Source: a virus (Duplodnaviria; Caudoviricetes). Taken from it: DNA of 60,111 bases. Below, one piece after another: positions 1,206 through 45,500 of this stretch. Each line of letters begins with the position of its first letter. The stretch's first letter is position 1. A model generated the notes under the pieces. The model worked only from the letters and a program-made list of their open reading frames with translations. It was not told the origin of the DNA and did not search any database. The position numbers and the translations under genes were made by a program. Location: positions 1 through 60,111 of IMG/VR virus record IMGVR_UViG_3300031774_000010, one strand, 5' to 3'.

Positions 1206-2075
1206 ATGAATTGGCAAGATGCATTTAAGTTGGGAGGAAGTGACGCTGCTAACAGTCTTGCAAGTAGTTATTCACAATCTTCAGGTCTAGCGGACGCATT
1301 TAGCGGAAATAAATGGGTTAGTGATCTTGCTCGTAATTATCCGGCACCTTCATCAACGGTTCCTGCTGATTTTTTTACATACAGTCCAGATAAAGATTCA
1401 GGTATTGATTGGAATACAATGATTGCTAATCCTGATGTTTTAGAGGGTGTAGGTGATAGTTATCCAGATCTTTTTAAAAACGGAGTAGATTTTTTAAAAG
1501 ACTTTACTAGTGATGAAAAAAGTCAATTTTTTGATGCACAAAAAGCTGCTGCTGGTTTACCTACTGATAAATCTCGTGAATCTTGGTACCAACAAGTTTC
1601 TCCGTCAGTAGGAATATACGGAGGATTAGGATCAGGATCAGGATATGGATATGGGTCAGTAGGGTCAGGAGCAGCTGCAATACAGGCAGCGAACACTCTA
1701 GGTGCTATGTATCCTCAAATGAGTCAGAAGAGTCCTGGTCTTAAAGATTATATTGGAGCGGGTATGAGAATGGCAGGAGATGAACTTAAATATAAGGCTT
1801 TGTATGCAATTAATCCAGTACTAGGAGCTGTTGAGCAGTTCTACCCTGGTGGTGCTACAGAAGCATTTAAAGATGTTGGTAAAGTTACTGGTGCTGTAGG
1901 TAACAAGATATCTAAGGGAATTGGCAGTGTTGTTAAACCTGTTCAAGATTTCCTTGATGGTATTTTCTGTGACGAACGATTAAAAGTAGACATTGCACCA
2001 TTAGAAAGCACAGAAGTTAACGACGAGTTAGCACAAATGGCATTCTTTGTGAAAGGTCTCCGTGAGTGCTCTTAA
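1206..2075 (+). CDS. putative virion protein ending in the N-terminal part of an S74 intramolecular chaperone motif
   Basis: C-terminal CDERLKVDIAPLE resembles the SDxRxKxxI auto-cleavage motif. Confidence 0.55.
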   Translation: MNWQDAFKLGGSDAANSLASSYSQSSGLADAFSGNKWVSDLARNYPAPSSTVPADFFTYSPDKDSGIDWNTMIANPDVLEGVGDSYPDLFKNGVDFLKDFTSDEKSQFFDAQKAAAGLPTDKSRESWYQQVSPSVGIYGGLGSGSGYGYGSVGSGAAAIQAANTLGAMYPQMSQKSPGLKDYIGAGMRMAGDELKYKALYAINPVLGAVEQFYPGGATEAFKDVGKVTGAVGNKISKGIGSVVKPVQDFLDGIFCDERLKVDIAPLESTEVNDELAQMAFFVKGLRECS

Positions 2076-2289
2076 GAAGTTAAGACAACTGGAGCCAATC
2101 CAGTTTAGATATAAAGAGGAGTTAGATCCGACGCAACCATTACGTGCTGGTTTCTCTGCTCAACAGGTACAAAAAGTAATACCTGAAGCAGTAAAAGAAG
2201 TTGATGGAATATTGATGTTGGATGGGAATGTTTTAAAGAATTATCTCCGCATGGCGAGAGAAGAGTTATTAGCTGAATCTTCTAAGTAG
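2062..2289 (+). CDS. stand-alone C-terminal part of peptidase S74 / intramolecular chaperone domain
   Basis: ALKKLRQLEPIQFRYK...GFSAQQVQKVIPEAV matches the S74 core; GTG start preceded by AAAGGT. Confidence 0.7.
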   Translation: MSALKKLRQLEPIQFRYKEELDPTQPLRAGFSAQQVQKVIPEAVKEVDGILMLDGNVLKNYLRMAREELLAESSK

Positions 2290-2336: not shown

Positions 2337-3140
2337 ATGGTCGCTCAAGCAGCAATACCTATGGCAGGTAAGTTATTACCTTTTTTAACAAAAATAGCTA
2401 CAAACCCAGTAGCAAGTTCAGCCGTTACAGGCGCTTTTATGGGTGGTGTACCTTCCTTACTGCAAGGTAATCTATTAAATGCATTAGGAGGTGGCATTGC
2501 AGGTGGAGCAGGAGGAGCAACTTTCGGTGGTATAGGAGGCAAATTAGTACCAGGAGCTACTGGACTTGCTGGTAGATTTATGGGTCCATCTACAACTGCG
2601 GCAGCGGCTGTAATACCAAGTTTAGCTGGGGCTGCGGCACCTGTTACTGCTGGTTTATTAGGAAATGCACTACTTGGCGGAGGCATTGGTAATTTAGGTA
2701 GACAAACAGCAGGAGCCGTAGGTGGAGCAGGTCAAAATACCGTCGGACTTCTTGGATATCATGCTGTAACTGGTGAGCCTTTATATGGAACAGCTGTACC
2801 TCCAGGGATGGGTCAGTATGGTGGAGTTCCTCCTGTTGGTGGTTCTGCTATGGATGTTCTTCAACCAGGTGGTCCTGCAGGTGCTCAAAGACTTACAACA
2901 CTTAAGAATGCAGAGACGATGGCTGATGCATTAAATGCTTACTTACCTACAGTTCGTAAGTTTAGTGAGCAAGCTAAGAAAGATGACTTTGAAAGAAATA
3001 TGGCTGCTGCAGGTATTAGACAAAATATTGCAACAAATGCTGCAATGTTACAAGCTTCGCAGCAAGCTGGTTTAGGAATGGGTCTTACAGGGGCTCAACA
3101 AGCTGGGCAAGCTTTAGTTAACCAGTATTCTTATAGCTGA
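2337..3140 (+). CDS. Gly/Ala-rich putative DNA ejection / internal virion protein
   Basis: Glycine-zipper-like hydrophobic N-half, Ala/Gln helical C-half. Confidence 0.5.
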   Translation: MVAQAAIPMAGKLLPFLTKIATNPVASSAVTGAFMGGVPSLLQGNLLNALGGGIAGGAGGATFGGIGGKLVPGATGLAGRFMGPSTTAAAAVIPSLAGAAAPVTAGLLGNALLGGGIGNLGRQTAGAVGGAGQNTVGLLGYHAVTGEPLYGTAVPPGMGQYGGVPPVGGSAMDVLQPGGPAGAQRLTTLKNAETMADALNAYLPTVRKFSEQAKKDDFERNMAAAGIRQNIATNAAMLQASQQAGLGMGLTGAQQAGQALVNQYSYS

Positions 3141-3142
3141 CT

Positions 3143-3871
3143 ATGACCACCCTAAATGAGTTTAAACAGTTAGTTGATGCCTATCGGTTAGGTGATTTAA
3201 AAGGACTTGACACTGCCTATAATCCGAATCCTACTGCAAATGGAAGAAACACAGATCTTAAAGATCCTTTGGTATATACGGATACTGAGTTAGAAGAGGA
3301 ACCTCTTCCAGACGATTTAGTATATGTAACTCGTGGTAAAGGACTTGATAAGAAAATATATGTAGGTAATAAAGATAGGGAAATGAATTTTCTTAAAAGA
3401 GCGACATTAGGATTATTAGATGCATTTGTAGATAATACAAAAGTAGGGGATAAAGTATTTAGGGTTGATAACGATAGGCAAAATTTAATACCAAAAGATG
3501 AATATAACGCGAAAAGGTTAGCAGAACGCCGTCGTAAAGCAGATATAAGTGGAGATGCAGTCGCAAGTCCTGAGCAAACTCGTAAACATATTGAAAGTCA
3601 AAGGGTACGAGATGCTTATCTTTTTGAACAATTAAATAAATTAAATGACTATGAATTAGAACGTTGGAAGAATGCTTATCCTCAGTATGCAAAAATGATA
3701 AATGATGAAATATTTAAGAGAAGAATGCAAATTGAATATAATAGTCCTAGTGAACTACAAAATAGACTAACCGCAGGTTTTGATACTCGTAATGCTGCTA
3801 AAGTTGCTGATGCTGAAGCATATCTAAAAATAGCGCAAGGTATGAAAACTGGTCTTGAGCGTTTTGTATAG
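3143..3871 (+). CDS. hypothetical protein
   Basis: 242-aa ORF in tight operon spacing. Confidence 0.7.
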   Translation: MTTLNEFKQLVDAYRLGDLKGLDTAYNPNPTANGRNTDLKDPLVYTDTELEEEPLPDDLVYVTRGKGLDKKIYVGNKDREMNFLKRATLGLLDAFVDNTKVGDKVFRVDNDRQNLIPKDEYNAKRLAERRRKADISGDAVASPEQTRKHIESQRVRDAYLFEQLNKLNDYELERWKNAYPQYAKMINDEIFKRRMQIEYNSPSELQNRLTAGFDTRNAAKVADAEAYLKIAQGMKTGLERFV

Positions 3872-3919: not shown

Positions 3920-6070
3920 ATGAGTAACGACGTAAAGCAAGTAGGTACTCAATTTGCCAAGGATTATTTAAGTAGTGCTCAAAATAATGCTGTAGCTAAG
4001 TTAACAGCTGACGACGATGATACAGGAGGAGGTGCTTCAAATCTTACAAAGGTAAACGATCCTTCTTTGCAATCTCAAATTGCATTAATGGATATACAGA
4101 ATACTCAACAACAGTTAAATTTAGAAACTGCTGCTGAATTAGATCGTATTCAAAGAGAGTTCTACACTGATCAAGATATTAGAAGAGGTCAGTCAGAAGG
4201 AACTCAAAGTCGATTAGGGCAAATGATGGGGGGAGAGCAACAACGTTTAAGTGCAAGAGTTGCAGGAGAAGAACAAAGAAGAGGAACAGCTGAGACAGGT
4301 TTACAACAGCGTTTAGGTGCAAGAGTTGCAGGGGAAGAGCAACGTGCAGGTATTGAGACAACTGGAACACAACAACGTTTAGGAACAGCTGAAACAGGAT
4401 TCCAACAGCGGCTTGGAATGGGAGAGCAGGGGTTACAACAAAGAATGGGAATGGCAGAATCTGGATTACAACAACGGCTAGGAACTGCAGAAACTGGAAG
4501 ACAGCAAAGAATGGGAACTGCAGAAACTGGTTATCAACAACGTTTAGGACAAAGAGTCGCTGGACAAGAAAGAAGAGCTGATTTAGCAGAAACAGGTGCT
4601 CAGCAGAGGGCATCATCCAGAGTCACTGGTCAAGAGCAACGTGCTGGTATGGTTGAGTCTGGTTATCAACAACGTTTAGGACAAAGAGTTGGAGGCCAAG
4701 AAAGAAGGGCTGAATTAGCAGAGACAGGAGCACAAACCCGTGCTACTGAGCGAGTTAGAGGTGAGGAAGATAGAGGACGTATTGGAGCAACTGGTTTTGA
4801 GCAACGTCTCGGAACTGCAGAAACTGGTTTCCAACAACGTTTAGGAACAGCTGAATCAGGATTCCAGCAGAGACTGGGAATGAGAACAGCAGCAGAAGAA
4901 ACTCGTGGAACAGAAAGAGTTAGAGGTGAAGAGCAACGTGCAGGTATTACAACAACTGGATTACAACAGCGTCTTGGAACTGCAGAGACAGGCTCCCAAA
5001 CCCGTGCTACTGAGCGAGTCAGAGGTGAGGAAGATAGAGGACGTATTACAACAACTGGAGTACAACAACGGCTTGGAACTGCAGAAACTGGGTTACAACA
5101 ACGTTTAGGAACAGCTGAATCAGGACTTCAACAGAGATTGGGAATGAGAACTGGAGGAGAAGAACAACGAGCAACTCGATCTTTAGAACAAAGAATAGGT
5201 GGAGAAGAGCAACGTCTTGGTATGAGAGTAGGGGGAGAAGAGCAAAGAGCATCTCGTGCTTTAGAACAAAGAATCGGTGGAGAAGAACAACGTCTTGGTA
5301 TGAGAGTAGGGGGACAAGAAACCCGTGCTACTGAGAGAGTTAGAGGTCAAGTAGACATTGGGCGTATTGGCGCAACTGGATTACAACAGCGTCTTGGAAC
5401 TGCAGAAACTGGTTTCCAACAAAGAATGGGAATGAGAACAGCAGCAGAAGAAACTCGTGGAACAGAAAGAGTTAGAGGTGAAGAGCAACGTGCTGGTATC
5501 TCAACAACTGGATTACAACAACGTTTAGGAACAGCTGAATCAGGACTTCAACAGAGATTGGGAATGACAACTGGAGGAGAACAAACACGTGCTACAGAAA
5601 GAGTTAGAGGTCAAGAGCAACGTGCTGGTATCTCAACAACTGGATTACAACAGCGTCTTGGAACTGCAGAAACTGGTTTCCAACAAAGAATGGGAATGAG
5701 AACAGGAGGAGAACAAACACGTGCTACCGAACGAGTCAAAGGTCAAGTAGACATTGGGCGTATTGGAGCTACAGGTCTTCAACAACGTCTGGGAACTGCA
5801 GAAACTGGTTTTCAACAAAGAATGGGAATGCAAACGGGAGGACAAGAAACACGTGCTACTGAAAGGGTTAGAGGTCAAGAAGATAGAGGAAGAATTGCAG
5901 CTACTGGTTTAGAGCAACGTTTAGGACAAAGAGTTGGAGGTCAAGAGCAAAGAGCGACAAGAGAAACAGAAGGTCAGCAAATCAGGTCAACAGACTTGCA
6001 AAGAGAGATGTTCCGTCGCTATAAAGAAGCAAGAGATTATGGCCAAGCACAACGAGCTTACCGAGTATGA
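3920..6070 (+). CDS. 11-residue (hendecad) repeat protein, putative ejection tube or ruler
   Basis: About 54 tandem units such as GTAETGLQQRL and TERVRGEEQRA. Confidence 0.6.
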   Translation: MSNDVKQVGTQFAKDYLSSAQNNAVAKLTADDDDTGGGASNLTKVNDPSLQSQIALMDIQNTQQQLNLETAAELDRIQREFYTDQDIRRGQSEGTQSRLGQMMGGEQQRLSARVAGEEQRRGTAETGLQQRLGARVAGEEQRAGIETTGTQQRLGTAETGFQQRLGMGEQGLQQRMGMAESGLQQRLGTAETGRQQRMGTAETGYQQRLGQRVAGQERRADLAETGAQQRASSRVTGQEQRAGMVESGYQQRLGQRVGGQERRAELAETGAQTRATERVRGEEDRGRIGATGFEQRLGTAETGFQQRLGTAESGFQQRLGMRTAAEETRGTERVRGEEQRAGITTTGLQQRLGTAETGSQTRATERVRGEEDRGRITTTGVQQRLGTAETGLQQRLGTAESGLQQRLGMRTGGEEQRATRSLEQRIGGEEQRLGMRVGGEEQRASRALEQRIGGEEQRLGMRVGGQETRATERVRGQVDIGRIGATGLQQRLGTAETGFQQRMGMRTAAEETRGTERVRGEEQRAGISTTGLQQRLGTAESGLQQRLGMTTGGEQTRATERVRGQEQRAGISTTGLQQRLGTAETGFQQRMGMRTGGEQTRATERVKGQVDIGRIGATGLQQRLGTAETGFQQRMGMQTGGQETRATERVRGQEDRGRIAATGLEQRLGQRVGGQEQRATRETEGQQIRSTDLQREMFRRYKEARDYGQAQRAYRV
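4187..5990 (+). repeat. 33-nt-period coding tandem repeat with higher-order duplications
   Basis: Recurrent GGAACTGCAGAAACTGG / CAACAACGTTTAGG units at 33-nt multiples; two 45-nt variants near 5170-5295. Confidence 0.9.
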
Positions 6071-6576: not shown

Positions 6577-8100
6577 ATGGCAGGAACAAGTATTTATAGT
6601 GTTTATCGACGAACTGCGAGAGCAGCCGCTAAACAACAAGTTGTCAAAAAAACTTCTAATATTGATGTAGAGCGAGCACGAGAAGATTTTGCATACTTTT
6701 GTGATGTTGTAGGAGATAAACCACCAGCCACTCACCATAAAGAATGGCATAAATATTTGTGTACTGGAAAGGATAGTGAATGTTTAGTAGGTATTGGTGG
6801 ACCCAATATTGATATCTTGGCACCTAGAGGAAGTGCTAAATCCACAATCCTTGGTTTATATACAGCTTGGACTGTTGGTATACATGCTCTTAATAAGCAA
6901 CCATTAAAGGTTTTATATATTTCTTACACTGTTGATGTAGCAAGACCTAAAAGTGCAGCCATAAAAAGAATTATTGAAGAAAGTAAAACATATCGTGAAA
7001 TTTTTCCCAGAGTGAAAATTGCTAAAGGTATTAATTCTAATGAGTATTGGAGTATTGATTGGAAGTTTGCTGGAATTAAATCTACTGGAGAAGAAGAGTT
7101 TACTGTTTGTTGTGCAGGCTTAAAAGGTGCTGTGACATCTAAACGTTCTCATCTTTGTATTATTGATGACGCTATCAAAAGTGCTGATGATATTAAAAAC
7201 AGAGATATTCGCCAAGCTATGCAGGATAACTGGAACTCAGTCATAGTTCCTACTATGTTTGAAGGAGGTAGAGCTATTTGTTTAGGAACTCGTTTCCGTC
7301 ATGATGATATTCATAACAGTACTTTTACTCCAGCAAATGATTGGGTTCAGATAGTCCAGTCTGCAATCACTGTTGATAAGGATGGTGAAGAAATTTCGTA
7401 TTGGCCAGATATGTGGTCTTTAGATTATTTACGAGATAGACGACGCCAAGCTCCAGTTGCTTTTAGTTTTCAGTATCAAAATCAAATAATACAGACAAGT
7501 GAGTTATCCCTTTCTCCAGACTTGGTTGTTAAAGGAGCTATAGCAACTCAGTTTGATGCTATGGGTATTGGAGTTGATCTATCAGCTGGTATAAGAGAGC
7601 AGAATGATTTTACTGCTTTTGTAATGGGTGGAAGGATAGGAAATAAGATTCATGTGATTGATTGTAAAAGATTGAGAATAATGGGGAATTTAGAAAAGTT
7701 AGAAGCATTAATGGAAATGTTAGATGAGTGGGGAGTTATTCATAAAGATGGAGATAATTACTTTCCTACAGGTAGTTCTATTCATGTTTGGTCTGAAGCT
7801 GTTGCATATCAGGCATCTTTAGAAGCTGACTTCAAACGTATCTGCTTAGGTGATCAAGGACTGTATAACGTTCTTTGGCATCCTGTTAAAGGATTTCGAG
7901 GAGACAAAGTTGCACGCTTTAGGGGCATTATGGGTTTATTTGAGCAAAGAAAGATTACTTTTAATAAGTATCGAAAGTTCACTGCATTAACAGATGAGAT
8001 TGTCAATTTCGGTGTTAGCTCCCATGATGATTGTGTTGATGCTTTAGTTTGGCTTTGTAATGGATTAATGACCAGAGGAAAACTAGAGTTAGAGTATTGA
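6577..8100 (+). CDS. terL: terminase large subunit
   Basis: Walker A APRGSAKS, Walker B CIIDD, GTR coupling motif, RNase H-like GVDLS and C-terminal HDDCVDA. Confidence 0.95.
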   Translation: MAGTSIYSVYRRTARAAAKQQVVKKTSNIDVERAREDFAYFCDVVGDKPPATHHKEWHKYLCTGKDSECLVGIGGPNIDILAPRGSAKSTILGLYTAWTVGIHALNKQPLKVLYISYTVDVARPKSAAIKRIIEESKTYREIFPRVKIAKGINSNEYWSIDWKFAGIKSTGEEEFTVCCAGLKGAVTSKRSHLCIIDDAIKSADDIKNRDIRQAMQDNWNSVIVPTMFEGGRAICLGTRFRHDDIHNSTFTPANDWVQIVQSAITVDKDGEEISYWPDMWSLDYLRDRRRQAPVAFSFQYQNQIIQTSELSLSPDLVVKGAIATQFDAMGIGVDLSAGIREQNDFTAFVMGGRIGNKIHVIDCKRLRIMGNLEKLEALMEMLDEWGVIHKDGDNYFPTGSSIHVWSEAVAYQASLEADFKRICLGDQGLYNVLWHPVKGFRGDKVARFRGIMGLFEQRKITFNKYRKFTALTDEIVNFGVSSHDDCVDALVWLCNGLMTRGKLELEY

Positions 8101-8330: not shown

Positions 8331-10607
8331 ATGAGCGATAGCAATACTAAATCCGCAATCGATTCTATCGTTAAGTCGGTTATCGAACGTGATGGTTCTG
8401 GTACAGCAGATACGATGCTGATCAACGCCCATTTATCTCAAATGAAGATGTTTGGGATAAGGCAAGGAGTTGAGTTCTTTCCACAACAAGATAATTTAGG
8501 TACTCAAAGATTTGATTTTATTCAACAGGTTATTAAATTTAATAAATTAGATGCACGGCTTGATTCAATTTGGGATAGATTTTTAGCTTATGGAAAAGGT
8601 TTATTTTATATAAGACCTACAAGAAAAACTTATCGTATCTATTGGTTTGATAAAGATTCATATAGGACTTATTACACACCAGAGGGTGACTTAGAAGAGG
8701 TAATTATTATTTATGGGTACAAAGTTCGTTCTAAAAAGGGATTTAAAGGAGCTGGTTTAAATACAGATAAGCGTTATATGCGTTTACGTATTACTGCAAC
8801 TGAGATTGAAGAGTTTCATAGTGAACAAGAAATAACTTTTGATCAAGAAAACGTTAGTTTTGCATCTCAGAACAAGAAAGTATTAGAAAACACTATGGAG
8901 TTTATTCCATGTGTTGAAGTATTTAACAATCCTGATGCTTTCGGAACGGATGGAGCTGGTGAATTTGAGTGGTTAGGTAATCAAATAATTGCTCATGATG
9001 AGATGGTTAAAAACATAAGGGCAAACTTATCGTTCTTTGGTAATCCAACTTTATTATCTTCTCGTCCTAAGCAAGACATTGTTGAAAGTAGTTCAGATAG
9101 TGAAGTACAAAGACCAAGTATTTCAAGTCAATCAGGTTTTCAATCTAATTTTGATTTATCAAGTTCGACGTTCAAGCAAGATCCAGTAACTAGAACGCAG
9201 CCAGGTTATATAGGTAAACCCGGTTCAGGTCTACGTGTTCCAAGAGTTATTGCTAATTTGGAGCCAGCAGATCGTGTTGGTTTTATTACACCTAATGCAG
9301 TTAGTACCGATCAGGCGAGGTATGCAGAACAACTACGTAGTGAGCTACGGTTGGCCTTAGGAGGCATAGATGACCTAAGTATTACAAATGTAACCGCAAC
9401 GGAGATTAAATCGGCATATGGACGTGTCAGTGCTACTGCAAAGAAGAAATGCTTACAACTGTATACTTATGGAATTTGTAAGGTTTTTGAATTAATACTT
9501 TTTCAAGAAGAACAAATATTTAGAAAGTCACTTGCTTTTGTTTCTAATATTAAATATCCAATAGTTCCTGAAGATTTAACTGATGAAAAAGCAGTTGAAA
9601 AGTATGAAAAAGGAAAGATGAAATATGAGATTAAATTACAGCAAGCAGTTGATTTATCATTAGAAACAGGAGAAATACCAGATGGTGTTGTAGGACTGGC
9701 ACCCGATGGAGATAGGACTATCCTATGGCGTTGGATGGGTCCTGTTTATGAAGACACACCTCAAGATAAATTAAACCAATCTATCTTCACAAGAAACCTC
9801 CAAGAATTAGGCGTTGATAGCATAGAAGCACTGAAGTACCTATTTCCTTCTAAAACTGACGACGAAATAGCAACGATGCTATCTGGTTATCCGTTTAGAA
9901 TTGTAGGAGAGGTACAAAGAGCTTTCTCAGCTTTCATTGATTTAGCTAATCAAGAAATGAGAACGCCACATCCGCAGCAACCGAATTTACCGATGGCTGC
10001 AGATCCGAGATTAGATCTCACTCCATTTTTATATAAAACACTAGAGCAACTCCAGAAGGAATTAACTTATGCAGGACGCTACCGTAGCGCCGACCCAATC
10101 GGCACCCCAAGTATCCCAGACCCAGCCGACCAGCTACGTGGCTCCAGCGGCTCAGGCACCAGTGGCTCAGGCACCAGTGGTGGGTACAGCTCCCCAATGG
10201 GTGGCAACATCCCAGCCAATGGCGGCACCAGTTCCACAAGCGCAAGCGCAGATGGGGATAGCGGCTCCACAATACAGCCCTACACCGTCAAGTTACCAGG
10301 AATATCAGGCACCCCAACAGCAGGAGAGTCCATACAAGGAAGCCTTCAACAAGGTGGTCGGGCTCCTGAGTTCACCAGTCCAGTTCCCGTTCCAGGGTCA
10401 ACAGTCGACTCAGACTCCAGCAGCAGGCCAGGTCAACTACGCTTCCCAACAGACAACCCCATACAGCAACGCGGTTCAGCCGACCTCTATGCCTGGGACC
10501 GTGAGCAACCAGGATTACTCCAACGCCTCTTCCCAAACATCTACGGGGATAACAGCGGAGCAACTAGCGGCAAGCGGAGTAAGCGACGCAAGTCTTCAAG
10601 TAATTGA
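8331..10607 (+). CDS. portal protein with long low-complexity C-terminal extension
   Basis: Position between terL and scaffold/MCP; ~580-aa folded core with portal-like helical and WGPV-type segments. Confidence 0.75.
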   Translation: MSDSNTKSAIDSIVKSVIERDGSGTADTMLINAHLSQMKMFGIRQGVEFFPQQDNLGTQRFDFIQQVIKFNKLDARLDSIWDRFLAYGKGLFYIRPTRKTYRIYWFDKDSYRTYYTPEGDLEEVIIIYGYKVRSKKGFKGAGLNTDKRYMRLRITATEIEEFHSEQEITFDQENVSFASQNKKVLENTMEFIPCVEVFNNPDAFGTDGAGEFEWLGNQIIAHDEMVKNIRANLSFFGNPTLLSSRPKQDIVESSSDSEVQRPSISSQSGFQSNFDLSSSTFKQDPVTRTQPGYIGKPGSGLRVPRVIANLEPADRVGFITPNAVSTDQARYAEQLRSELRLALGGIDDLSITNVTATEIKSAYGRVSATAKKKCLQLYTYGICKVFELILFQEEQIFRKSLAFVSNIKYPIVPEDLTDEKAVEKYEKGKMKYEIKLQQAVDLSLETGEIPDGVVGLAPDGDRTILWRWMGPVYEDTPQDKLNQSIFTRNLQELGVDSIEALKYLFPSKTDDEIATMLSGYPFRIVGEVQRAFSAFIDLANQEMRTPHPQQPNLPMAADPRLDLTPFLYKTLEQLQKELTYAGRYRSADPIGTPSIPDPADQLRGSSGSGTSGSGTSGGYSSPMGGNIPANGGTSSTSASADGDSGSTIQPYTVKLPGISGTPTAGESIQGSLQQGGRAPEFTSPVPVPGSTVDSDSSSRPGQLRFPTDNPIQQRGSADLYAWDREQPGLLQRLFPNIYGDNSGATSGKRSKRRKSSSN

Positions 10608-11055
10608 TCATTTCGGTGCTGACGCTCCAGCAATTCTTAATGACTATGCTTGTAAGGTAGAAGATTCACTTATTAAAACTGATAGTCAGTTAAAGCAAGG
10701 TGTAGGTTTACTAAAACAGTTAAATGCTGAGCATAAGAAATATACAAAAATTCTTACTGATCCTAATGTTTTAGCAGACTATACAACAAAGTTCTTTGGT
10801 CCTAATGGTCCTCATCCTGTAACTCCTGCAGCACCTGCTCAAAGGCAACAAGCAGCGCCAACAGCTCAGAGAGTAGCTCCTCAACGTCCTGAGATGCCTA
10901 TTCCTCCACAGCCTCAAGCTGCCGCTTCTCCAAGTGATTTCTGGAATAACTTCGGTTCTGCTGCTGATAGAGATCCTCAAAATGCATGGAGGTATCTAAG
11001 TGCTGCCCAGCAAAATCCTGAGGTCTTCCGTCAGAAGCTCCTTGTAATGGAATAA
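10069..11055 (+). CDS. putative capsid scaffolding protein
   Basis: RBS GAAGGA upstream; Q/P/A-rich disordered N-half, helical middle; precedes MCP; followed by a terminator. Confidence 0.55.
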   Translation: MQDATVAPTQSAPQVSQTQPTSYVAPAAQAPVAQAPVVGTAPQWVATSQPMAAPVPQAQAQMGIAAPQYSPTPSSYQEYQAPQQQESPYKEAFNKVVGLLSSPVQFPFQGQQSTQTPAAGQVNYASQQTTPYSNAVQPTSMPGTVSNQDYSNASSQTSTGITAEQLAASGVSDASLQVIDHFGADAPAILNDYACKVEDSLIKTDSQLKQGVGLLKQLNAEHKKYTKILTDPNVLADYTTKFFGPNGPHPVTPAAPAQRQQAAPTAQRVAPQRPEMPIPPQPQAAASPSDFWNNFGSAADRDPQNAWRYLSAAQQNPEVFRQKLLVME

Positions 11056-12022: not shown

Positions 12023-13171
12023 ATGTTTATAGATAACGATTTCCCGAAACTTCTCGGAGCGGAATTGTATCGTCCCCATCCAGCTTACATCGTGGAAATG
12101 GCTTCCGAGCCAGTAGTAGTACATGATTTTACTAAGCAGCCTGGTCAGACTGTACAGCTAGACCGCTACAGATTCTTCGGCAATCCTGGAACAAAGACTA
12201 GCCGTGAGCGTACTCAGGATCAAACCATAGGTACAGCTAACAGCAGATCTATTGTCAAGGACAAGGTTCTTGTATCTCTTCGTGAGTACACAGGCCCAGC
12301 CGATCCAAACAACACAAATCTTCCTAGCACATTCAAGATTGCTAGAGAGACCTTGATGACAGCACAGCGTTTGCTGCTTGATACTGGGAACCTTAATATG
12401 TTCCACCAGTCAATCGGTAGTTTAACTCTGTTAGATGACTACCGTCGTTGGAGAGATAGAGTCTTCATTGATGAACTCTTTAAGAGTGAGTCAAGAGGCC
12501 AATCTTCTGATTCACAAGGTGGATACTACTATCCAAACGGAAAAGCAAAAACAAACTCAACTACTCTTACTGCATACACAGCTACAGAATATGCTTCTGA
12601 GCGCTTTAAGTTCAACGTAAAAACTGACCTTTTAGAAGTTGTAAAGAGTTTACGTAAGCGTCACGTACCTGTCTTTGAAGACGGATACTACAGATGTATC
12701 GCTGACCCTTCATTCATGAAGGATCTACGTGCAGACCAAGGCTTCCGTGAAGTTGCTCGTTACCCTGGAATGCCTGGACAAGGTTCTCCTTTGATGGGTG
12801 CTGGACAACCTAACCAAGCTATCTACGCTGGTGGTCAATTTGGCCAAGCCCAGTTTGTAGGTGGAGAGCCAGTCATGCCAAGCGGTTTCGTGTTCGAGGG
12901 AGTAAGATTCTTTGAGTCTACAAACTTCCCTGCTAAAACTATTACTGCTGATATCGGTGATGGTAATGGCGCAGGTTCCAAAACTACTCCTGCTGGATTG
13001 TTCTTCGGTCCTCAGGCTATCGGTGTAGGTATTGGTGGTCCAAACGCTCAAGTTCTAATTAATAACAACGACGACTTCAGCAGATTTATTATTCTGATCT
13101 GGCAGTTGTACGCTGGTTTTGCGAACTTGAACAAGGACTTCATCACTACAGCCTTCACAGTGGCTGAGTAA
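12023..13171 (+). CDS. major capsid protein
   Basis: 382 aa; strong codon bias (TTC/AAC/ATC); HK97-like features (YYRCIADP, GFVFEGVRFFES); position after portal/scaffold. Confidence 0.85.
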   Translation: MFIDNDFPKLLGAELYRPHPAYIVEMASEPVVVHDFTKQPGQTVQLDRYRFFGNPGTKTSRERTQDQTIGTANSRSIVKDKVLVSLREYTGPADPNNTNLPSTFKIARETLMTAQRLLLDTGNLNMFHQSIGSLTLLDDYRRWRDRVFIDELFKSESRGQSSDSQGGYYYPNGKAKTNSTTLTAYTATEYASERFKFNVKTDLLEVVKSLRKRHVPVFEDGYYRCIADPSFMKDLRADQGFREVARYPGMPGQGSPLMGAGQPNQAIYAGGQFGQAQFVGGEPVMPSGFVFEGVRFFESTNFPAKTITADIGDGNGAGSKTTPAGLFFGPQAIGVGIGGPNAQVLINNNDDFSRFIILIWQLYAGFANLNKDFITTAFTVAE

Positions 13172-39041: not shown

Positions 39042-39360
39042 ACTCCTTTGCTAAGCCAGTGAAGAGACTATTAGTTCTTCCTGATTTATTATATAATTCT
39101 TCCATTATTCTACTCCGTTCAGGATATACACCTTCTTCTTCTTTTGTAGCATAATTGTGATAATCAAGAGCAATTTCTAAGTGATTTAATCTAGCTGCAG
39201 CTTCTTCCTTTGTATCACACCATGCTCCGATTGTGGTATTCCCATCAAGTACTATCATTGGTGCATAATTTTTTTCTTTTAAATGATAATTACTCTGAAC
39301 TACTTGACTCTTTTTCAGAGTTATTTTTTCTCTCTTTGTAGTGTTTGAAGATGTTGTCAT
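39013..39360 (-). CDS. hypothetical protein
   Basis: 115-aa ORF. Confidence 0.6.
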   Translation of the reverse strand: MTTSSNTTKREKITLKKSQVVQSNYHLKEKNYAPMIVLDGNTTIGAWCDTKEEAAARLNHLEIALDYHNYATKEEEGVYPERSRIMEELYNKSGRTNSLFTGLAKEYVTVSNNNS

Positions 39361-40426
39361 GAGTAAGTTTAACGCACTGTAGTTTTGTAGGGGATGACTC
39401 GTTTTCGAGTTCTTTGATTGTAAGGTGCAAAGGGTTACAACAAAAAGGTTTACAAGATTTTTTTGTAAAGATCCTGTATTTACCTGTATAACCGCGACTC
39501 AACCAAAAAGCAACTCGCGATGCTGATTGAGTTTTACCACTATGGAATGGAGAAGGAAAATATGCAACTGACTCACTTCCATTTTTCTTTGTTGAACCAT
39601 TCCAAGCCCAACATTCATTATCTTCACCAATATCAACTTGGTCCCAAAAACGTTTAATTTGCCAATGCCAACGAAAATCAAAATTACGCACATCAATAGT
39701 GCATCGATCATTTTTTATTTCTTTCATACAATCTAAGCACTCTCCCATAAGGCCAAAATTACCTTTATGTGTTGTAGATCCTTTCGCATGCCAAGGACAT
39801 TCATAATTATTTTTCATGTGATAATTCAAATTAAATTCATCCGCTTCTGTAGAATACTCTGTAGTCAACTTTTTATATAAAGCTGCAATATTCTTCCAAA
39901 GAAGTTGTTTATCAGGATTTTCATTGACGTCTTCAGGAATATAAGTCTCATAATTACAAATTCTTCTGACAGTTTGATAAGGAAGTCTGTAAGTCTTTGA
40001 TAATTTTAAACTACTTATGCCTGACTCACTTTCCTGTCGCAGTTTACTTATTAAAGTGTTATTAATGCCTGTTTTATTTCTTTCATTGTTTTCTTTTGCT
40101 ACATCTGCCCTTGTTCCCCAGTAATAATGAGATGGATTTAGACAATATTGAGACTCACAAATAGACCGACGAACAATAATTGGTTTTAAAGGATCAGGAT
40201 CTTGCCCAGCCATAGCTAAAAGCAAAGGACGTGCATCTCGACCCCTGTAAGAGAGTCGAACCTTTTTACTAGTGGTAAAACCTTGAAATATTGTGTGATT
40301 ACATTGATCACGCCGCTTCAAACACCAGCATTTGTCTTTTCCACGTAGCTGTAAAGCTATTTGAAAGGCTTTTACAAAGGTAATTTTGTCATTTGGTGTA
40401 AGAGAGGTAGCTAAAAAAGCATCCAT
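39290..40426 (-). CDS. tandem HNH/His-Cys (zinc-binding loop) domain protein with central HTH, probably nuclease-dead
   Basis: Two CW...C.NP.H units (YCLNPSHYYWGT, CCNPLHL); SSLKLSKTYRLPYQTVRRI HTH; ATG at 40426 preferred. Confidence 0.7.
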   Translation of the reverse strand: MDAFLATSLTPNDKITFVKAFQIALQLRGKDKCWCLKRRDQCNHTIFQGFTTSKKVRLSYRGRDARPLLLAMAGQDPDPLKPIIVRRSICESQYCLNPSHYYWGTRADVAKENNERNKTGINNTLISKLRQESESGISSLKLSKTYRLPYQTVRRICNYETYIPEDVNENPDKQLLWKNIAALYKKLTTEYSTEADEFNLNYHMKNNYECPWHAKGSTTHKGNFGLMGECLDCMKEIKNDRCTIDVRNFDFRWHWQIKRFWDQVDIGEDNECWAWNGSTKKNGSESVAYFPSPFHSGKTQSASRVAFWLSRGYTGKYRIFTKKSCKPFCCNPLHLTIKELENESSPTKLQCVKLTHDNIFKHYKERKNNSEKESSSSE

Positions 40427-40480
40427 TTTAGGAAAAACAGTTAGGGTGCAAGGTGTTCTACACATTAAACCTCTTCTGGC

Positions 40481-40671
40481 GCAATGGCAATCATTGAACA
40501 CCCAAAATCTAATTTTTTTTCCCTTATTTATTTACTTCTAAGGAGGAGAGGGTTAGGTACGTGACTGTAAGTTATCTTATCTTCACTCATGTACCTATCC
40601 CTAACGCTTACGTACTTAAGATAAAAGCCTATATTTTTTAAGTTTTTGGGTGTTTATACCAAAACCATTGC
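40481..40671. repeat. long interrupted dyad, candidate origin or protein-binding array
   Basis: Three inverted-repeat blocks sharing one symmetry centre near 40576. Confidence 0.75.
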
Positions 40672-42894: not shown

Positions 42895-43968
42895 ATGACA
42901 CAGACTAAAGCTGAATTATTACAAACCAAAAATCAAGGAGATATACGTCTTGGAGATGCTGATTCTTCACATTATGTAGGTTTTAAAGCGCCAACAACTG
43001 TAAGTGCTAATAAGGTATGGACTCTTCCTGCAGCTGACGGAAGTGCTAATCAAGTATTAACAACTAATGGTTCAGGAGTTTTAACTTGGGCTGCTGGTGG
43101 TGGTCTTTCTTCAGATGCACAGTTTAACACTGTTGGCGGTACAAACGCAGGAGATAGTTTTACTGGAACAGATGCAAATTATAATACGTTGATCGGTTAT
43201 GACGCTGGAACAGCAATAACATCTGGTGATAATAATACTGTCTTTGGTTATAAAGCAGGGGAAGCTATAACAACTGTTAGTCGGAACAGCTTTTTTGGAT
43301 ATCAAGCAGGTAGATATACCACTGGTTATAATAACACTTTCATAGGTGAGAATTGTGGTCAAGGATCGTCTGGATCTACTACTTCTTATAATGGTACTGG
43401 TCTAGGTAAAGGTGCATTATATAGTTCAACTACTGGTGGTGGTAATACATCAATAGGCATGAACTCAGGATACGCAGTTACTACTGGTTATGACAATACG
43501 TTGATTGGTTATCAAGCTGGTAATACGCTTACAACAGGTAGAAATAACATTTGTATTGGTTATGAATCTGCACCGTCAAGCAATACAGTTGATCATGAAA
43601 TAACGTTTGGAAATTCATCTATATCAACTTTACGTTGTCAAGTAACAAGCATTAGTGCCTTATCTGATAGGCGTGATAAGACAGATATTAATACTTTAGA
43701 TTTAGGATTAAACTTTATAAATGCTCTTAATCCAGTAAAATTCAAATGGAATTCAAGAGAAGGAATATTAAAAGATGGTAGTTATGAAGCAGGTTTTATA
43801 GCTCAGGACTTTCAGGAATCACAAAAAGACTTTAATGCTGAATACCTTAATTTGGTATTAGATACAAATCCAGAAAAACTAGAAGCTGCTCCAGGTAAAT
43901 TAATTCCAATAATGGTCCAAGCCATTAAAGAACTATCCGCAGAAGTCCAAGCATTAAAGAACTCATAG
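42895..43968 (+). CDS. fibre protein with S74 chaperone
   Basis: WTLPAADG, NTxxGxxAG repeats, SDRRDK, GFIAQD. Confidence 0.9.
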   Translation: MTQTKAELLQTKNQGDIRLGDADSSHYVGFKAPTTVSANKVWTLPAADGSANQVLTTNGSGVLTWAAGGGLSSDAQFNTVGGTNAGDSFTGTDANYNTLIGYDAGTAITSGDNNTVFGYKAGEAITTVSRNSFFGYQAGRYTTGYNNTFIGENCGQGSSGSTTSYNGTGLGKGALYSSTTGGGNTSIGMNSGYAVTTGYDNTLIGYQAGNTLTTGRNNICIGYESAPSSNTVDHEITFGNSSISTLRCQVTSISALSDRRDKTDINTLDLGLNFINALNPVKFKWNSREGILKDGSYEAGFIAQDFQESQKDFNAEYLNLVLDTNPEKLEAAPGKLIPIMVQAIKELSAEVQALKNS

Positions 43969-44015: not shown

Positions 44016-45500
44016 ATGGCTTACATTGGAAGACAGTTGGCACGAGGAGAAAATAGACTCTTCGATGATATCTCTAGTAGTTTTAATGGAAGTACCACAA
44101 CTTTCAATTTAACTGTTGCATCGGTTGCTACCTCTACTGCAACTCCATACCAACTCTTTGTGAGTCTTGGCGGGGTGATGCAGAAACCTGGTACAGACTT
44201 TACGACAGCTGGTAATCAAATAACCTTTACGACTGCTCCAGCAGCTGGAATTTCCTGTTGGATTATGATGCAGGGAGATTCAATTGATCAAGCTGCTATT
44301 CCTGACGGTGTAGTAACTGCAAGCAAAATAGCGAATAGTGGTGACTTTGCATTTCCTGCTGACATCCGTTTAAAAGATGGTGATGGCTCACATTATGTAG
44401 GTTTTGAAGCGCCAACAACTGTAAGTGCTAATAAGGTATGGACTCTTCCTGCAGCTGACGGAAGTGCTAATCAACTATTAACAACTAATGGCTCAGGAGT
44501 TTTAACTTGGAGTACTGTTGCTGCTGGTGGTACTACGGTTACTAATGCTTATTCCTTAGTAAGTAGTAATGCTGGAAGTGGTGGTTCTTATGTCGTTTCG
44601 CTCGGAGAAGAGGCAGGAGAGAATCTTAACACTTTAAATAATTATTATAACATCAGCATAGGGAATCAGGCTGGTTATACAGCTAACGTCAATTGGGGAC
44701 ATATATACATAGGTAAGCAAGCTGGTAAGTTTCTTACAGGTGGTAACATTTGTATTGGATACGAAAGTGGAGTAGGAGTTTCTGGATCTAGTACTGCAAG
44801 TTCCGTAACTGCTATTGGTAAATTTGCACTTAAAGCTATAACAACAGGTGGTCCTTGTGTAGCTTTGGGTAGTTATGCTGGATGGAAATTAACCTCAGGT
44901 ATTAATAACGTAATAATTGGAGATCAGTCTGGGTACAACGTTACTACTGGTGCTAGTAATACATTTTTAGGAGAAGCAGCTGGACATTCTACAACAACTG
45001 GAACTGATAATATATGTATAGGAAAGTATGCATATGGACCTACAACAGGAGCAAATAATATTCTTATCGGTACTGGTTCTACTTTATCAGCCCAAACAGT
45101 TTCTAATCAAATAACGCTTGGAAATTCATCTATATCAACTTTACGTTGTCAAGTAACAAGCATTAGTGCCTTATCTGATAGGCGTGATAAGACAGATATT
45201 AATACTTTAGATTTAGGATTAAACTTTATAAATGCTCTTAATCCAGTAAAATTCAAATGGAATTCAAGAGAAGGAATATTAAAAGATGGTAGTTATGAAG
45301 CAGGTTTTATAGCTCAGGACTTTCAGGAATCACAAAAAGACTTTAATGCTGAATACCTTAATTTGGTATTAGATACAAATCCAGAAAAACTAGAGGCAGC
45401 ACCTGGAAAATTAATGCCAATAGTGGTCCAAGCCATTAAAGAATTACTAGAAGAAGTGACTACATTGAAAACTAAGGTTGCTTTATTAGAATCTGCATAA
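44016..45500 (+). CDS. fibre protein with S74 chaperone
   Basis: MAYIG...DDISSSFNGS N-terminus like the long fibre; same repeats and S74 domain. Confidence 0.9.
   Translation: MAYIGRQLARGENRLFDDISSSFNGSTTTFNLTVASVATSTATPYQLFVSLGGVMQKPGTDFTTAGNQITFTTAPAAGISCWIMMQGDSIDQAAIPDGVVTASKIANSGDFAFPADIRLKDGDGSHYVGFEAPTTVSANKVWTLPAADGSANQLLTTNGSGVLTWSTVAAGGTTVTNAYSLVSSNAGSGGSYVVSLGEEAGENLNTLNNYYNISIGNQAGYTANVNWGHIYIGKQAGKFLTGGNICIGYESGVGVSGSSTASSVTAIGKFALKAITTGGPCVALGSYAGWKLTSGINNVIIGDQSGYNVTTGASNTFLGEAAGHSTTTGTDNICIGKYAYGPTTGANNILIGTGSTLSAQTVSNQITLGNSSISTLRCQVTSISALSDRRDKTDINTLDLGLNFINALNPVKFKWNSREGILKDGSYEAGFIAQDFQESQKDFNAEYLNLVLDTNPEKLEAAPGKLMPIVVQAIKELLEEVTTLKTKVALLESA

Follow-up and report, generated by a model that had tools for sequence, protein, structure and literature searches.

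An S74 intramolecular chaperone encoded by two overlapping phage genes, with cysteine at the nucleophile position

How can a self-cleaving protein domain be put together when the strand that holds its active site and the body that surrounds this strand are encoded by two different genes? The question is raised by positions 1,206 to 2,289 of a 60,111-nucleotide stretch of tailed-phage DNA (IMG/VR record IMGVR_UViG_3300031774_000010; Duplodnaviria, Caudoviricetes), which is called the window throughout this text and in which two overlapping open reading frames (ORFs), ORF1 and ORF2, share what would normally be a single S74 domain. The textbook S74 domain folds and trimerises the protein attached to it and then cuts itself off, and as far as is known every studied case is one chain with a Ser-Lys dyad. 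An initial annotation of this DNA, made from its letters, described instead an S74 domain split over two overlapping genes with Cys in the place of the catalytic Ser, and this can be read directly from the window: ORF1 ends in a 14-residue segment with the motif Cys-Asp-x-Arg-x-Lys, here called the cable, and an additional tail, while ORF2, in the +1 frame and overlapping ORF1 by the 14 nucleotides that had been described, supplies the remainder (Table 1). What the pair encodes is the S74 intramolecular chaperone and autoprotease in two genes, where Cys takes the place of the nucleophile and a putative docking tail comes in addition, and the probability that ORF1 and ORF2 are two separately translated chains that jointly make one S74 domain can be put at roughly 0.75. 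A widespread natural split just after the active-site strand would mean that the S74 body can come as a separate protein, and the pair lets one ask how such a "cable-cutter" site assembles, whether a covalent link is needed and whether a thiol can replace a hydroxyl.

The relationship of ORF2 to S74 is evident from both sequence and predicted structure. It matches Pfam PF13884 (Peptidase_S74) with an expectation value (E) of 1.7e-10 and 41.4 bits (cut-off 22), its residues 3-45 aligning to profile positions 16-58 of 58, and ORF1 alone gives no S74 match in the Pfam scan. A scan of the whole record recovered three complete S74 domains in cis (profile positions 1-53, 1-53 and 1-52, in frames of 357, 494 and 1205 residues), which bears out the initial annotation in its mention of three fibres with the ordinary arrangement; the fourth match was the ORF2 locus, covering profile positions 12-58 only. 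When the cable is notionally joined to ORF2 (CDERLK...PLES + ALKK...QFRY), 29 residues separate the nucleophile from the aromatic residue, just as they do in a fibre of the window (SDRRDK...KFKW), so the earlier remark that this join gives canonical S74 spacing holds, and only the number of residues said to follow ...PLES needs correction, from 22 to 21 plus the stop codon. Of the features by which an S74 domain is recognized, the pair has the PF13884 match above cut-off and the Asp at +1, Arg at +3 and Lys at +5; the Ser nucleophile and the placement of the whole domain on the client's own chain are the two that it lacks. Modelled alone with its alignment, ORF2 gives a predicted local distance difference test (pLDDT) score of 94, with a fold in which a short helix is followed by two strands, another helix, a hairpin and the long C-terminal helix. 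The best solved match of this model in Foldseek is the MyRF ICA domain (7dc3; template modelling (TM) score 0.77-0.78, E 5e-5, probability 1.00, 22% identity), followed by weak matches to the phage chaperone domains 3gud and 3gw6 (E 0.16-0.7). A sequence search of the PDB with ORF2 also returned 7dc3 as its best hit (E 5.2e-5). Finally, an exhaustive profile search with ORF2 against 1.84 billion representative proteins gave 1887 matches at E <=0.001, and the 19 best of these are all short stand-alone proteins of 47-169 residues, with ordinary long fibre proteins coming next; 16 of the 19 align from within their own first three residues, the exceptions being one whose match begins at its residue 32 (P0124) and two that match only the later part of ORF2 (P0133 and P0139).

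Is this arrangement an accident of one genome? The Cys, the tail, the stop codon and the overlapping ORF2 recur in five viral contigs with an ORF1 just 39-59% identical to the window's, so other genomes share the arrangement. With ORF1 as query, a word-indexed search of proteins 158-506 residues long returned 163 homologues, and among the 120 for which details were listed (159-290 residues long), the full 35-residue segment from the Cys to the end closes 113, with three cut inside the segment and four cut before it. None of these 120 continues into an S74 body, and a search for longer proteins that contain ORF2 found only two, both beginning at ORF2's own Met, so the single fused frame whose presence in relatives would have spoken against a split did not turn up in either search. 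Scanning viral contigs with ORF2 gave 54 loci: 44 of the split family (ORF2 51-93% identical), nine ordinary one-chain fibres with SDERIK that are 43% identical, and one fragment. Together with the window the family therefore comprises 45 loci, with a guanine-plus-cytosine fraction of 0.33-0.63, and all 45 have the two-ORF form. The CDxRxK tail is found in 43 of them, and 42 of these 43 share the same geometry of 35 codons from Cys to stop with a +1-frame [A/G]TG start 11 nucleotides before the stop, while the length of ORF1 ahead of the Cys ranges from 117 to 571 residues in complete relatives. The conservation of split, Cys and tail in related genomes that the initial annotation wanted checked is thus borne out, in 43 of 45 loci and in 113 of the 120 listed homologues.

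The departures from the common geometry are informative in their own right. One locus (L043) has a 34-residue tail and an ORF2 that overlaps through ATGA and lies in the +2 frame, another (L040) has a TAATG stop-start arrangement and in a third (L042) the ORF1 stop lies 8 nucleotides before the ORF2 ATG, so that stop and start stay close together in 45 of 45 loci even as their frame relation varies. In the latter two (L040, positions 258-418; L042, positions 2400-2560) ORF1 ends in ...GGLFG and ...GGLF, respectively, with cable and tail absent and ORF2 intact, and these may be either natural "pre-cut" variants or defective contigs. Carriers of the pair come from 20 studies in an index of sequencing runs, and the same two-gene layout is found on a 3.1-kb contig binned in a Rhodobacteraceae metagenome-assembled genome (MAG); this and a second short contig, binned in a Sphingomonadaceae MAG, are the only hints of a host and too weak to name one. 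In a phage collection, blastn set for distant matches with 1206-2289 and tblastn with ORF1 gave nothing, and the sole match to ORF2 by tblastn was the long tail fibre of a T4-like phage, 38% identical. Judged by the portal protein, the nearest phage in culture is Synechococcus phage S-EIVl (51% identity), whose record contains a single ordinary cis S74 but lacks the split form. Neither protein has a name beyond "hypothetical protein" in the sources examined, and no listing in a full-text literature search described a split or Cys-bearing S74. These are unannotated, abundant genes of uncultured marine phages.

One alternative is that there is no split gene at all, only an assembly or sequencing error or else a fibre gene, formerly fused, that is decaying as a pseudogene, and for this nothing was found beyond the idea that a single-base insertion or deletion can divide a gene. 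Contigs from three DNA runs of different studies span the junction (for example 1992-2088, 2012-2081 and 1965-2083) with no inserted or missing letters, which answers, at the level of contigs, the check for an assembly error that had been proposed. Furthermore, the ORF2 frame is closed upstream by TGA at 2050-2052 and TAG at 2029-2031, and one insertion or deletion would not fuse the genes in register past two stops; the same layout recurs in 42 further loci and 113 protein clusters, well beyond what chance would give, and all parts are under purifying selection (see below). With the conserved loci, bridging contigs, selection and homologue tails all speaking against it, an error or pseudogene is refuted for practical purposes and retains next to no probability. 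Metagenome contigs of three runs also break with unlike sequence at both borders of the locus, at 1958-1965 and 2324-2331, and their depth is several-fold higher between ~1968 and 2310. The ~360-nucleotide block of cable, tail and ORF2 is common to several co-occurring genotypes with differing flanks. The one oligo-dT RNA run with a contig here covers 1800-2011 only, at a depth of 2.6, and says nothing on expression.

If the locus is real, is the stretch between the cable and the ORF2 start read as protein, or is it skipped? The initial annotation had left open a recoding event, a ribosomal hop from AGC (2007-2009) to AGT (2065-2067), which would skip 58 nucleotides and yield a canonical one-chain S74; its arithmetic is right, both ends are Ser codons in the window, and the join gives the 29-residue spacing and fits the Pfam profile coordinates. 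The bypass in T4 gene 60 is comparable in that some 50-60 nucleotides separate the two halves of a recognisable domain, with like codons on either side in the window. Here, however, the matched codons are not conserved. The take-off residue is Ser in 99, Arg in 11, Thr in two and Asn in one of the 113 listed complete homologue tails, and in the wider family it may be Ser, Thr, Gln, Asn, Lys, Val or Tyr with a landing codon that does not follow suit (AGA with AGT in L012, ACA with AGC in L015). No stop follows the take-off codon, the next codon being ACA, and L043 has a different frame relation. The stretch to be skipped also evolves as coding sequence: over tail codons 15-31 the ratio of nonsynonymous to synonymous differences (pN/pS) is 0.30 in the ORF1 frame as against 0.93 and 1.53 in the other two frames, the same as the pooled pairwise value of 0.30 for the cable in the ORF1 frame and 0.30 for ORF2 in its own. 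The hop, at odds with the varying take-off codons, the translated stretch and the lack of a stop after AGC, was rejected as highly improbable.

The same comparisons speak to what is being conserved. The synonymous value pS is ~0.7 throughout cable, tail and ORF2, and with a pN/pS of 0.30 this means that it is protein, rather than nucleotides, that is conserved family-wide; that the six closest loci are nearly identical reflects relatedness. In the non-overlapping tail of 39 distinct DNAs the entropy averages 0.64, 0.41 and 1.27 bits at the first, second and third codon positions of the ORF1 frame, much as in the cable (0.70, 0.46 and 1.25 bits), and past the overlap the periodicity changes to the frame of ORF2. 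Because both pN/pS and codon periodicity follow the ORF1 frame, the tail is a selected and translated peptide, neither a skipped gap nor a linker.

A programmed +1 frameshift within the 14-nucleotide overlap presents a further possibility, in which part of the ribosomes would make a fused chain, that is, a cis S74 with an insert of ~20 residues. The constancy of the +1 relation and of the 14-nucleotide overlap in 42 of 43 tail-bearing loci would suit it, as would the RNA of 1995-2115, which folds slightly better than its shuffled versions (z -2.11; 6 of 200 shuffles as good), except that its small hairpins, compared by eye, do not recur where relatives use other codons. No slippery site is present at the junction, and neither a conserved shift-prone codon nor a fixed frame was found: the last sense codon may be TCT, GCT, AGT, TCG, CCT or AAT, none of which re-pairs in the +1 frame, and the ORF2 of L043, with its ATGA, lies in the +2 frame. 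A shift would also have no need of the invariant [A/G]TG start, and inspection by eye of the cis S74 motifs listed brought up none with an insert of ~20 residues between cable and first helix. A frameshift as the source of a fused chain is therefore quite unlikely, and nothing calls for a fused product, though a rare one may be made.

What is kept instead is a start codon. In the 39 distinct DNAs the three columns of the ORF2 start are G in 31 and A in eight, T in all 39 and G in all 39, the T being a third codon position of ORF1, where third positions close by average 1.27 bits of entropy, and the start is ATG where the ORF1 of relatives has Asn (His in L053) for the Arg of the window. The second start lies within a few nucleotides of the first stop, as is usual for translational coupling, and a stop and start that remain close while their frame varies are the pattern expected from termination and reinitiation, not from a frameshift or a hop; ORF1 and ORF2 are thus probably coupled in this way. 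The initial annotation had favoured two chains on account of an AAAGGT before the GTG resembling a ribosome-binding site, and the motif is indeed there, although it makes a weak argument, as a Shine-Dalgarno-like core precedes only nine of 41 long ORFs of this phage and the Lys-Gly/Glu/Asp codons in any case fix the bases. Its preference for two chains is better served by the start that is invariant in 39 of 39 DNAs, by the selection on the tail, by the +2 frame of L043 and by a co-fold of the two chains that scores above its controls.

This co-fold consisted of three ORF1 C-termini (50 residues each) and three ORF2 chains, and gave values of ipSAE, an interface score, of 0.74, 0.72 and 0.75 as compared with 0.00 in all three controls, with a partner pLDDT of 77-78 and at least 80% of contacts common to the runs. 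The mark it passes is attained by 58 of 80 solved complexes and two of 110 mismatched pairs and is a rough guide only, since the present co-fold used alignments of its own and six chains. The co-fold of trimers that had been suggested as a check accordingly came out above the controls, with a score of 0.74 against 0.00 that may nevertheless echo solved S74 trimers, and binding of the two chains is a prediction of this model. In it the ORF1 Lys41 (numbering of the C-terminal piece) contacts Phe15 in the QFRYK strand of ORF2, and tail residues 50-64 of the piece pack on ORF2 residues 10-16 and 25-31, which are the most conserved parts of ORF2, with contacts of the whole tail extending over 10-18 and 25-35; the invariant or near-invariant tail residues L56, A60, V63 and K64 are among the contacts. 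The tail can hence be read, on the model, as a docking helix that replaces the absent covalent link. That it might be a duplicate of the first helix of ORF2 was considered and discarded, as profile-profile comparison of the two showed no likeness (probability 0.7%).

The place of the split can be compared with one-chain relatives. Passages in PMC8326128 describe how in MyRF the "cable" that bears the cleavage site and belongs to a neighbouring subunit threads through a beta "donut", where the site is lined by Tyr615 and Tyr617, both aromatic residues in the HYRYK strand, and either of the changes S587A and K592A stops cleavage. For the T5 pb1 protein, passages in PMC4690869 place a loop of residues 1265-1276 after Ser1264 and before the first hairpin, with Lys1269 activating the Ser. 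The split falls exactly at this boundary of loop and hairpin; ORF1 keeps the very part that is held by another subunit even in one-chain domains. MyRF ICA is the best solved match of ORF2 in both structure and sequence, and its HYRYK strand corresponds to QFRYK in ORF2, of which Phe15 contacts the ORF1 Lys in the model; MyRF is nevertheless one chain with a Ser-Lys dyad, and eukaryotic, so that the likeness is one of fold and mechanism and not of biology.

Among the phage C-terminal chaperones (K1F endosialidase, T5 pb1 and the phi29/GA-1 appendage; PF13884, MEROPS S74) the domain is the same by the sequence of ORF2 and the fold is the same by the weak matches to 3gud and 3gw6; the x-D-x-R-x-K motif, the Lys at +5 and the position C-terminal to the processed protein are alike as well. 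In contrast to these one-chain domains, the present one is divided between two genes after domain residue 14, has Cys for Ser and carries the extra 21-residue tail, and its client is of low complexity and not an evident fibre or triple beta-helix. Tail-fibre chaperones encoded separately, such as T4 gp57A and gp38 or the lambda Tfa type, are also small genes beside a client whose assembly they aid, but they are neither S74 proteins nor cutters of their clients, whereas in the present pair the helper makes up the body of a domain of the self-cleaving kind, whose active-site strand stays on the client. Naturally split inteins, DnaE for example, offer an analogy in that a self-processing domain spread over two genes docks in order to act, with Cys or Ser next to the scissile bond; their fold and chemistry are unrelated (splicing as opposed to simple cleavage), and no homology is claimed.

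Would the assembled domain then cut? Cys36, Asp37 and Lys41 of the C-terminal piece are invariant in 38 distinct aligned tails and Arg39 nearly so (>=90%), all 113 complete tails among the 120 listed ORF1 homologues have the Cys, and since both TGT and TGC encode it among the family loci, it is the residue itself that is under selection. Ser, Thr and Cys interchange in many self-cleaving proteins that attack the preceding peptide bond, which makes a Cys-Lys pair chemically plausible, and Cys255 and Lys260 could well be such a cleaving pair. Cleavage of ORF1 at F254/C255 through this pair is, on balance, probable. A motif of the type x-D-x-R/K-x-K could be recognized in 106 of the 150 best representatives from the ORF2 profile search, with Ser in 103, Cys in one and two doubtful. 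The single Cys, the sole case among 104 clear motifs, is in a one-chain S74 of a 901-residue protein (P0192, residues ~768-800, LLCDARLK...), so that, judged by these alignments, the Cys form does occur outside the split family, yet rarely.

This rarity is the first point in favour of a different reading, namely that three ORF1 and three ORF2 chains form a stable complex that is never cleaved, in which ORF2 does no more than cap the trimer and the role of the Cys is a structural one, such as in a disulfide or as a metal ligand, and not that of a nucleophile. The large interface with ORF2 that the tail adds in the model would suit a lasting complex, and a second Cys is common near the end of the tail (RECS or RECA in 106 of the 113 listed complete tails), albeit not invariant, with Arg, Ser, Tyr, His and Asn as variants. 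Weighing the other way, the invariant Asp at +1 and Lys at +5 and the nearly invariant Arg at +3 are exactly those of cleaving S74 domains, the 901-residue cis protein has its Cys in an otherwise normal motif, and in L040 and L042 ORF1 stops at exactly the point where close relatives go on with the Cys, which gives a hint, from sequence, of a mature end there. I consider a stable complex without cleavage unlikely. Several further observations, to be counted with the rarity of the Cys, weigh against the assembled and cleaving domain proposed here or soften the evidence for it: the intact ORF2 of L040 and L042, where cable and tail are gone, may point to a role of ORF2 that is independent of the cable (or again to defective contigs); many family loci are interrelated, and their counts do not stand for independent events; RAGFSAQQV of ORF2 owes its invariance partly to construction, as it served as search pattern and locating motif; the co-fold may draw on memory of solved S74 trimers; and the 70-residue C-terminal piece of ORF1 modelled alone has a pLDDT of only 59.8, with a low-confidence helix at 54-69.

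For the two-chain S74 domain the following course of events can be proposed. ORF1 would carry its own cleavage site, the 14-residue Cys-Asp-x-Arg-x-Lys cable and the extra 21-residue helical docking tail, and a ribosome ending ORF1 would restart at the GTG or ATG 11 nucleotides before the stop; with the start so near the stop, the restarting ribosome would make both chains in about equal numbers. ORF2 would give the remaining domain, a beta "donut" and a C-terminal helix that forms a trimeric coiled coil, and three ORF2 chains and three ORF1 C-termini would form an S74-like trimer, thus bringing ORF1 into a trimer. The Cys255-Lys260 dyad would then cut F254/C255 and free mature ORF1 with its hydrophobic Gly/Ala-rich end, and ORF2 would stay bound to the 35-residue peptide.

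One may go a step further and picture ORF2 as a free-standing, reusable S74 "cutter and trimeriser" whose thiol site is completed by the client, an idea that is tentative at best, and it is equally doubtful whether any protein with the 35-residue tag of cable plus tail would be trimerised and cut. Such a portable module would explain why the same tag is found on unlike ORF1 bodies (with their 117-571 residues before the Cys) and why ORF2 survives where ORF1 has lost the tag, as in L040 and L042. A profile of the tail run against the six-frame translation of the 60-kb window found ORF1 only (E 1.5e-24; next E 2.2) and no second client. If the idea is true, the tag and ORF2 would be a portable natural split module for processing and a ready-made tool in two parts with which to control trimerisation and remove a tag.

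Table 1. Positions of the split S74 locus and of landmark genes in the window
Feature	Position	Strand	Remarks
ORF1	1206..2075	+	289 residues; C-terminus ...DGIF-CDERLKVDIAPLES-TEVNDELAQMAFFVKGLRECS-TAA
ORF1 predicted mature part, residues 1-254	1206..1967	+	Low-complexity, Gly/Ser-rich; most variable part among relatives
TGT, Cys255	1968..1970	+	At position of S74 nucleophilic Ser; predicted cleavage site F254/C255
Cable CDERLKVDIAPLES	1968..2009	+	About S74 profile positions 1-14; Asp +1, Arg +3, Lys +5
Lys260, +5 from Cys255	1983-1985	+	
21-residue tail TEVNDELAQMAFFVKGLRECS	2010..2072	+	Without counterpart in cis S74 domains; predicted helical, predicted to pack on ORF2
Purine-rich AAGGT 5' of GTG	2053..2057	+	Possible weak ribosome-binding site; not separable from Lys-Gly codons
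ORF2 start GTG	2062..2064	+	11 nucleotides ahead of ORF1 stop
Dual-coding overlap, 14 nucleotides	2062..2075	+	ORF1 ...RECS-stop / ORF2 MSAL...; coupling by termination-reinitiation likely here
ORF1 stop TAA	2073..2075	+	TGA in most relatives
ORF2	2062..2289	+	75 residues, +1 frame; begins MSALKKLRQLEPIQFRYK
S74 domain body (= ORF2)			Helix 1, beta strands, GFSAQQV motif, long C-terminal helix
Large terminase	6577-8100		Phage layout of window
Portal-like protein	8331-10607		
Major head protein	12023-13171		

Less can be said of the client itself. The ORF1 body has no Pfam or PHROG match and is the least conserved member of its block, and an Atlas look-up of ORF1 gave no named family, with structure rows at TM <=0.31 and a model of its own at pLDDT 0.39. 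In most relatives ORF1 ends in a hydrophobic Gly/Ala-rich stretch directly before the Cys, for example GGLLSLGGSIIGAL or AIGAGVSAGAKALIGTM, and mature ORF1 would by its sequence end in a membrane-like or zipper-like stretch; as a guess, it may be a virion or assembly protein that needs trimerisation. Most of the family has a conserved order of two upstream genes, ORF1, ORF2, a Gly/Ala-rich protein, a repeat protein, a small protein and the terminase, and in the window Pfam and PHROG gave no matches for 450-1175, 2337-3140, 3143-3871 or 3920-6070. The Gly/Ala-rich protein directly after ORF2 (2337-3140, +) has many GxxxG-like runs and is kept downstream in the family at 28-88% identity. The repeat protein (3920-6070, +) has 716 residues made almost wholly of dozens of short degenerate repeats (TG-x-QQRLGTAE / RVRGEE-x-R), and most family loci have a homologue with 28-67% identity in the corresponding position downstream of ORF2.

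The record as a whole is classed as linear and ~70% complete, with a phage-type layout that also includes three fibre or spike genes, a primase and a DNA polymerase. Two adjacent fibre genes (42895-43968 and 44016-45500, both +) have near-identical C-terminal ends of ~110 residues including the cis S74, which look, from their sequences, like the outcome of a recent duplication or exchange. The portal-like ORF (+) overlaps a 328-residue ORF at 10069-11055 (+) by 539 nucleotides in a different frame, and this second ORF may be genuine, a shifted continuation or spurious. Among the replication genes a 402-residue ORF at 39290-40501 (-), the C-terminal portion of which matches an HNH endonuclease (PHROG E 3e-14), may be a homing-type nuclease.

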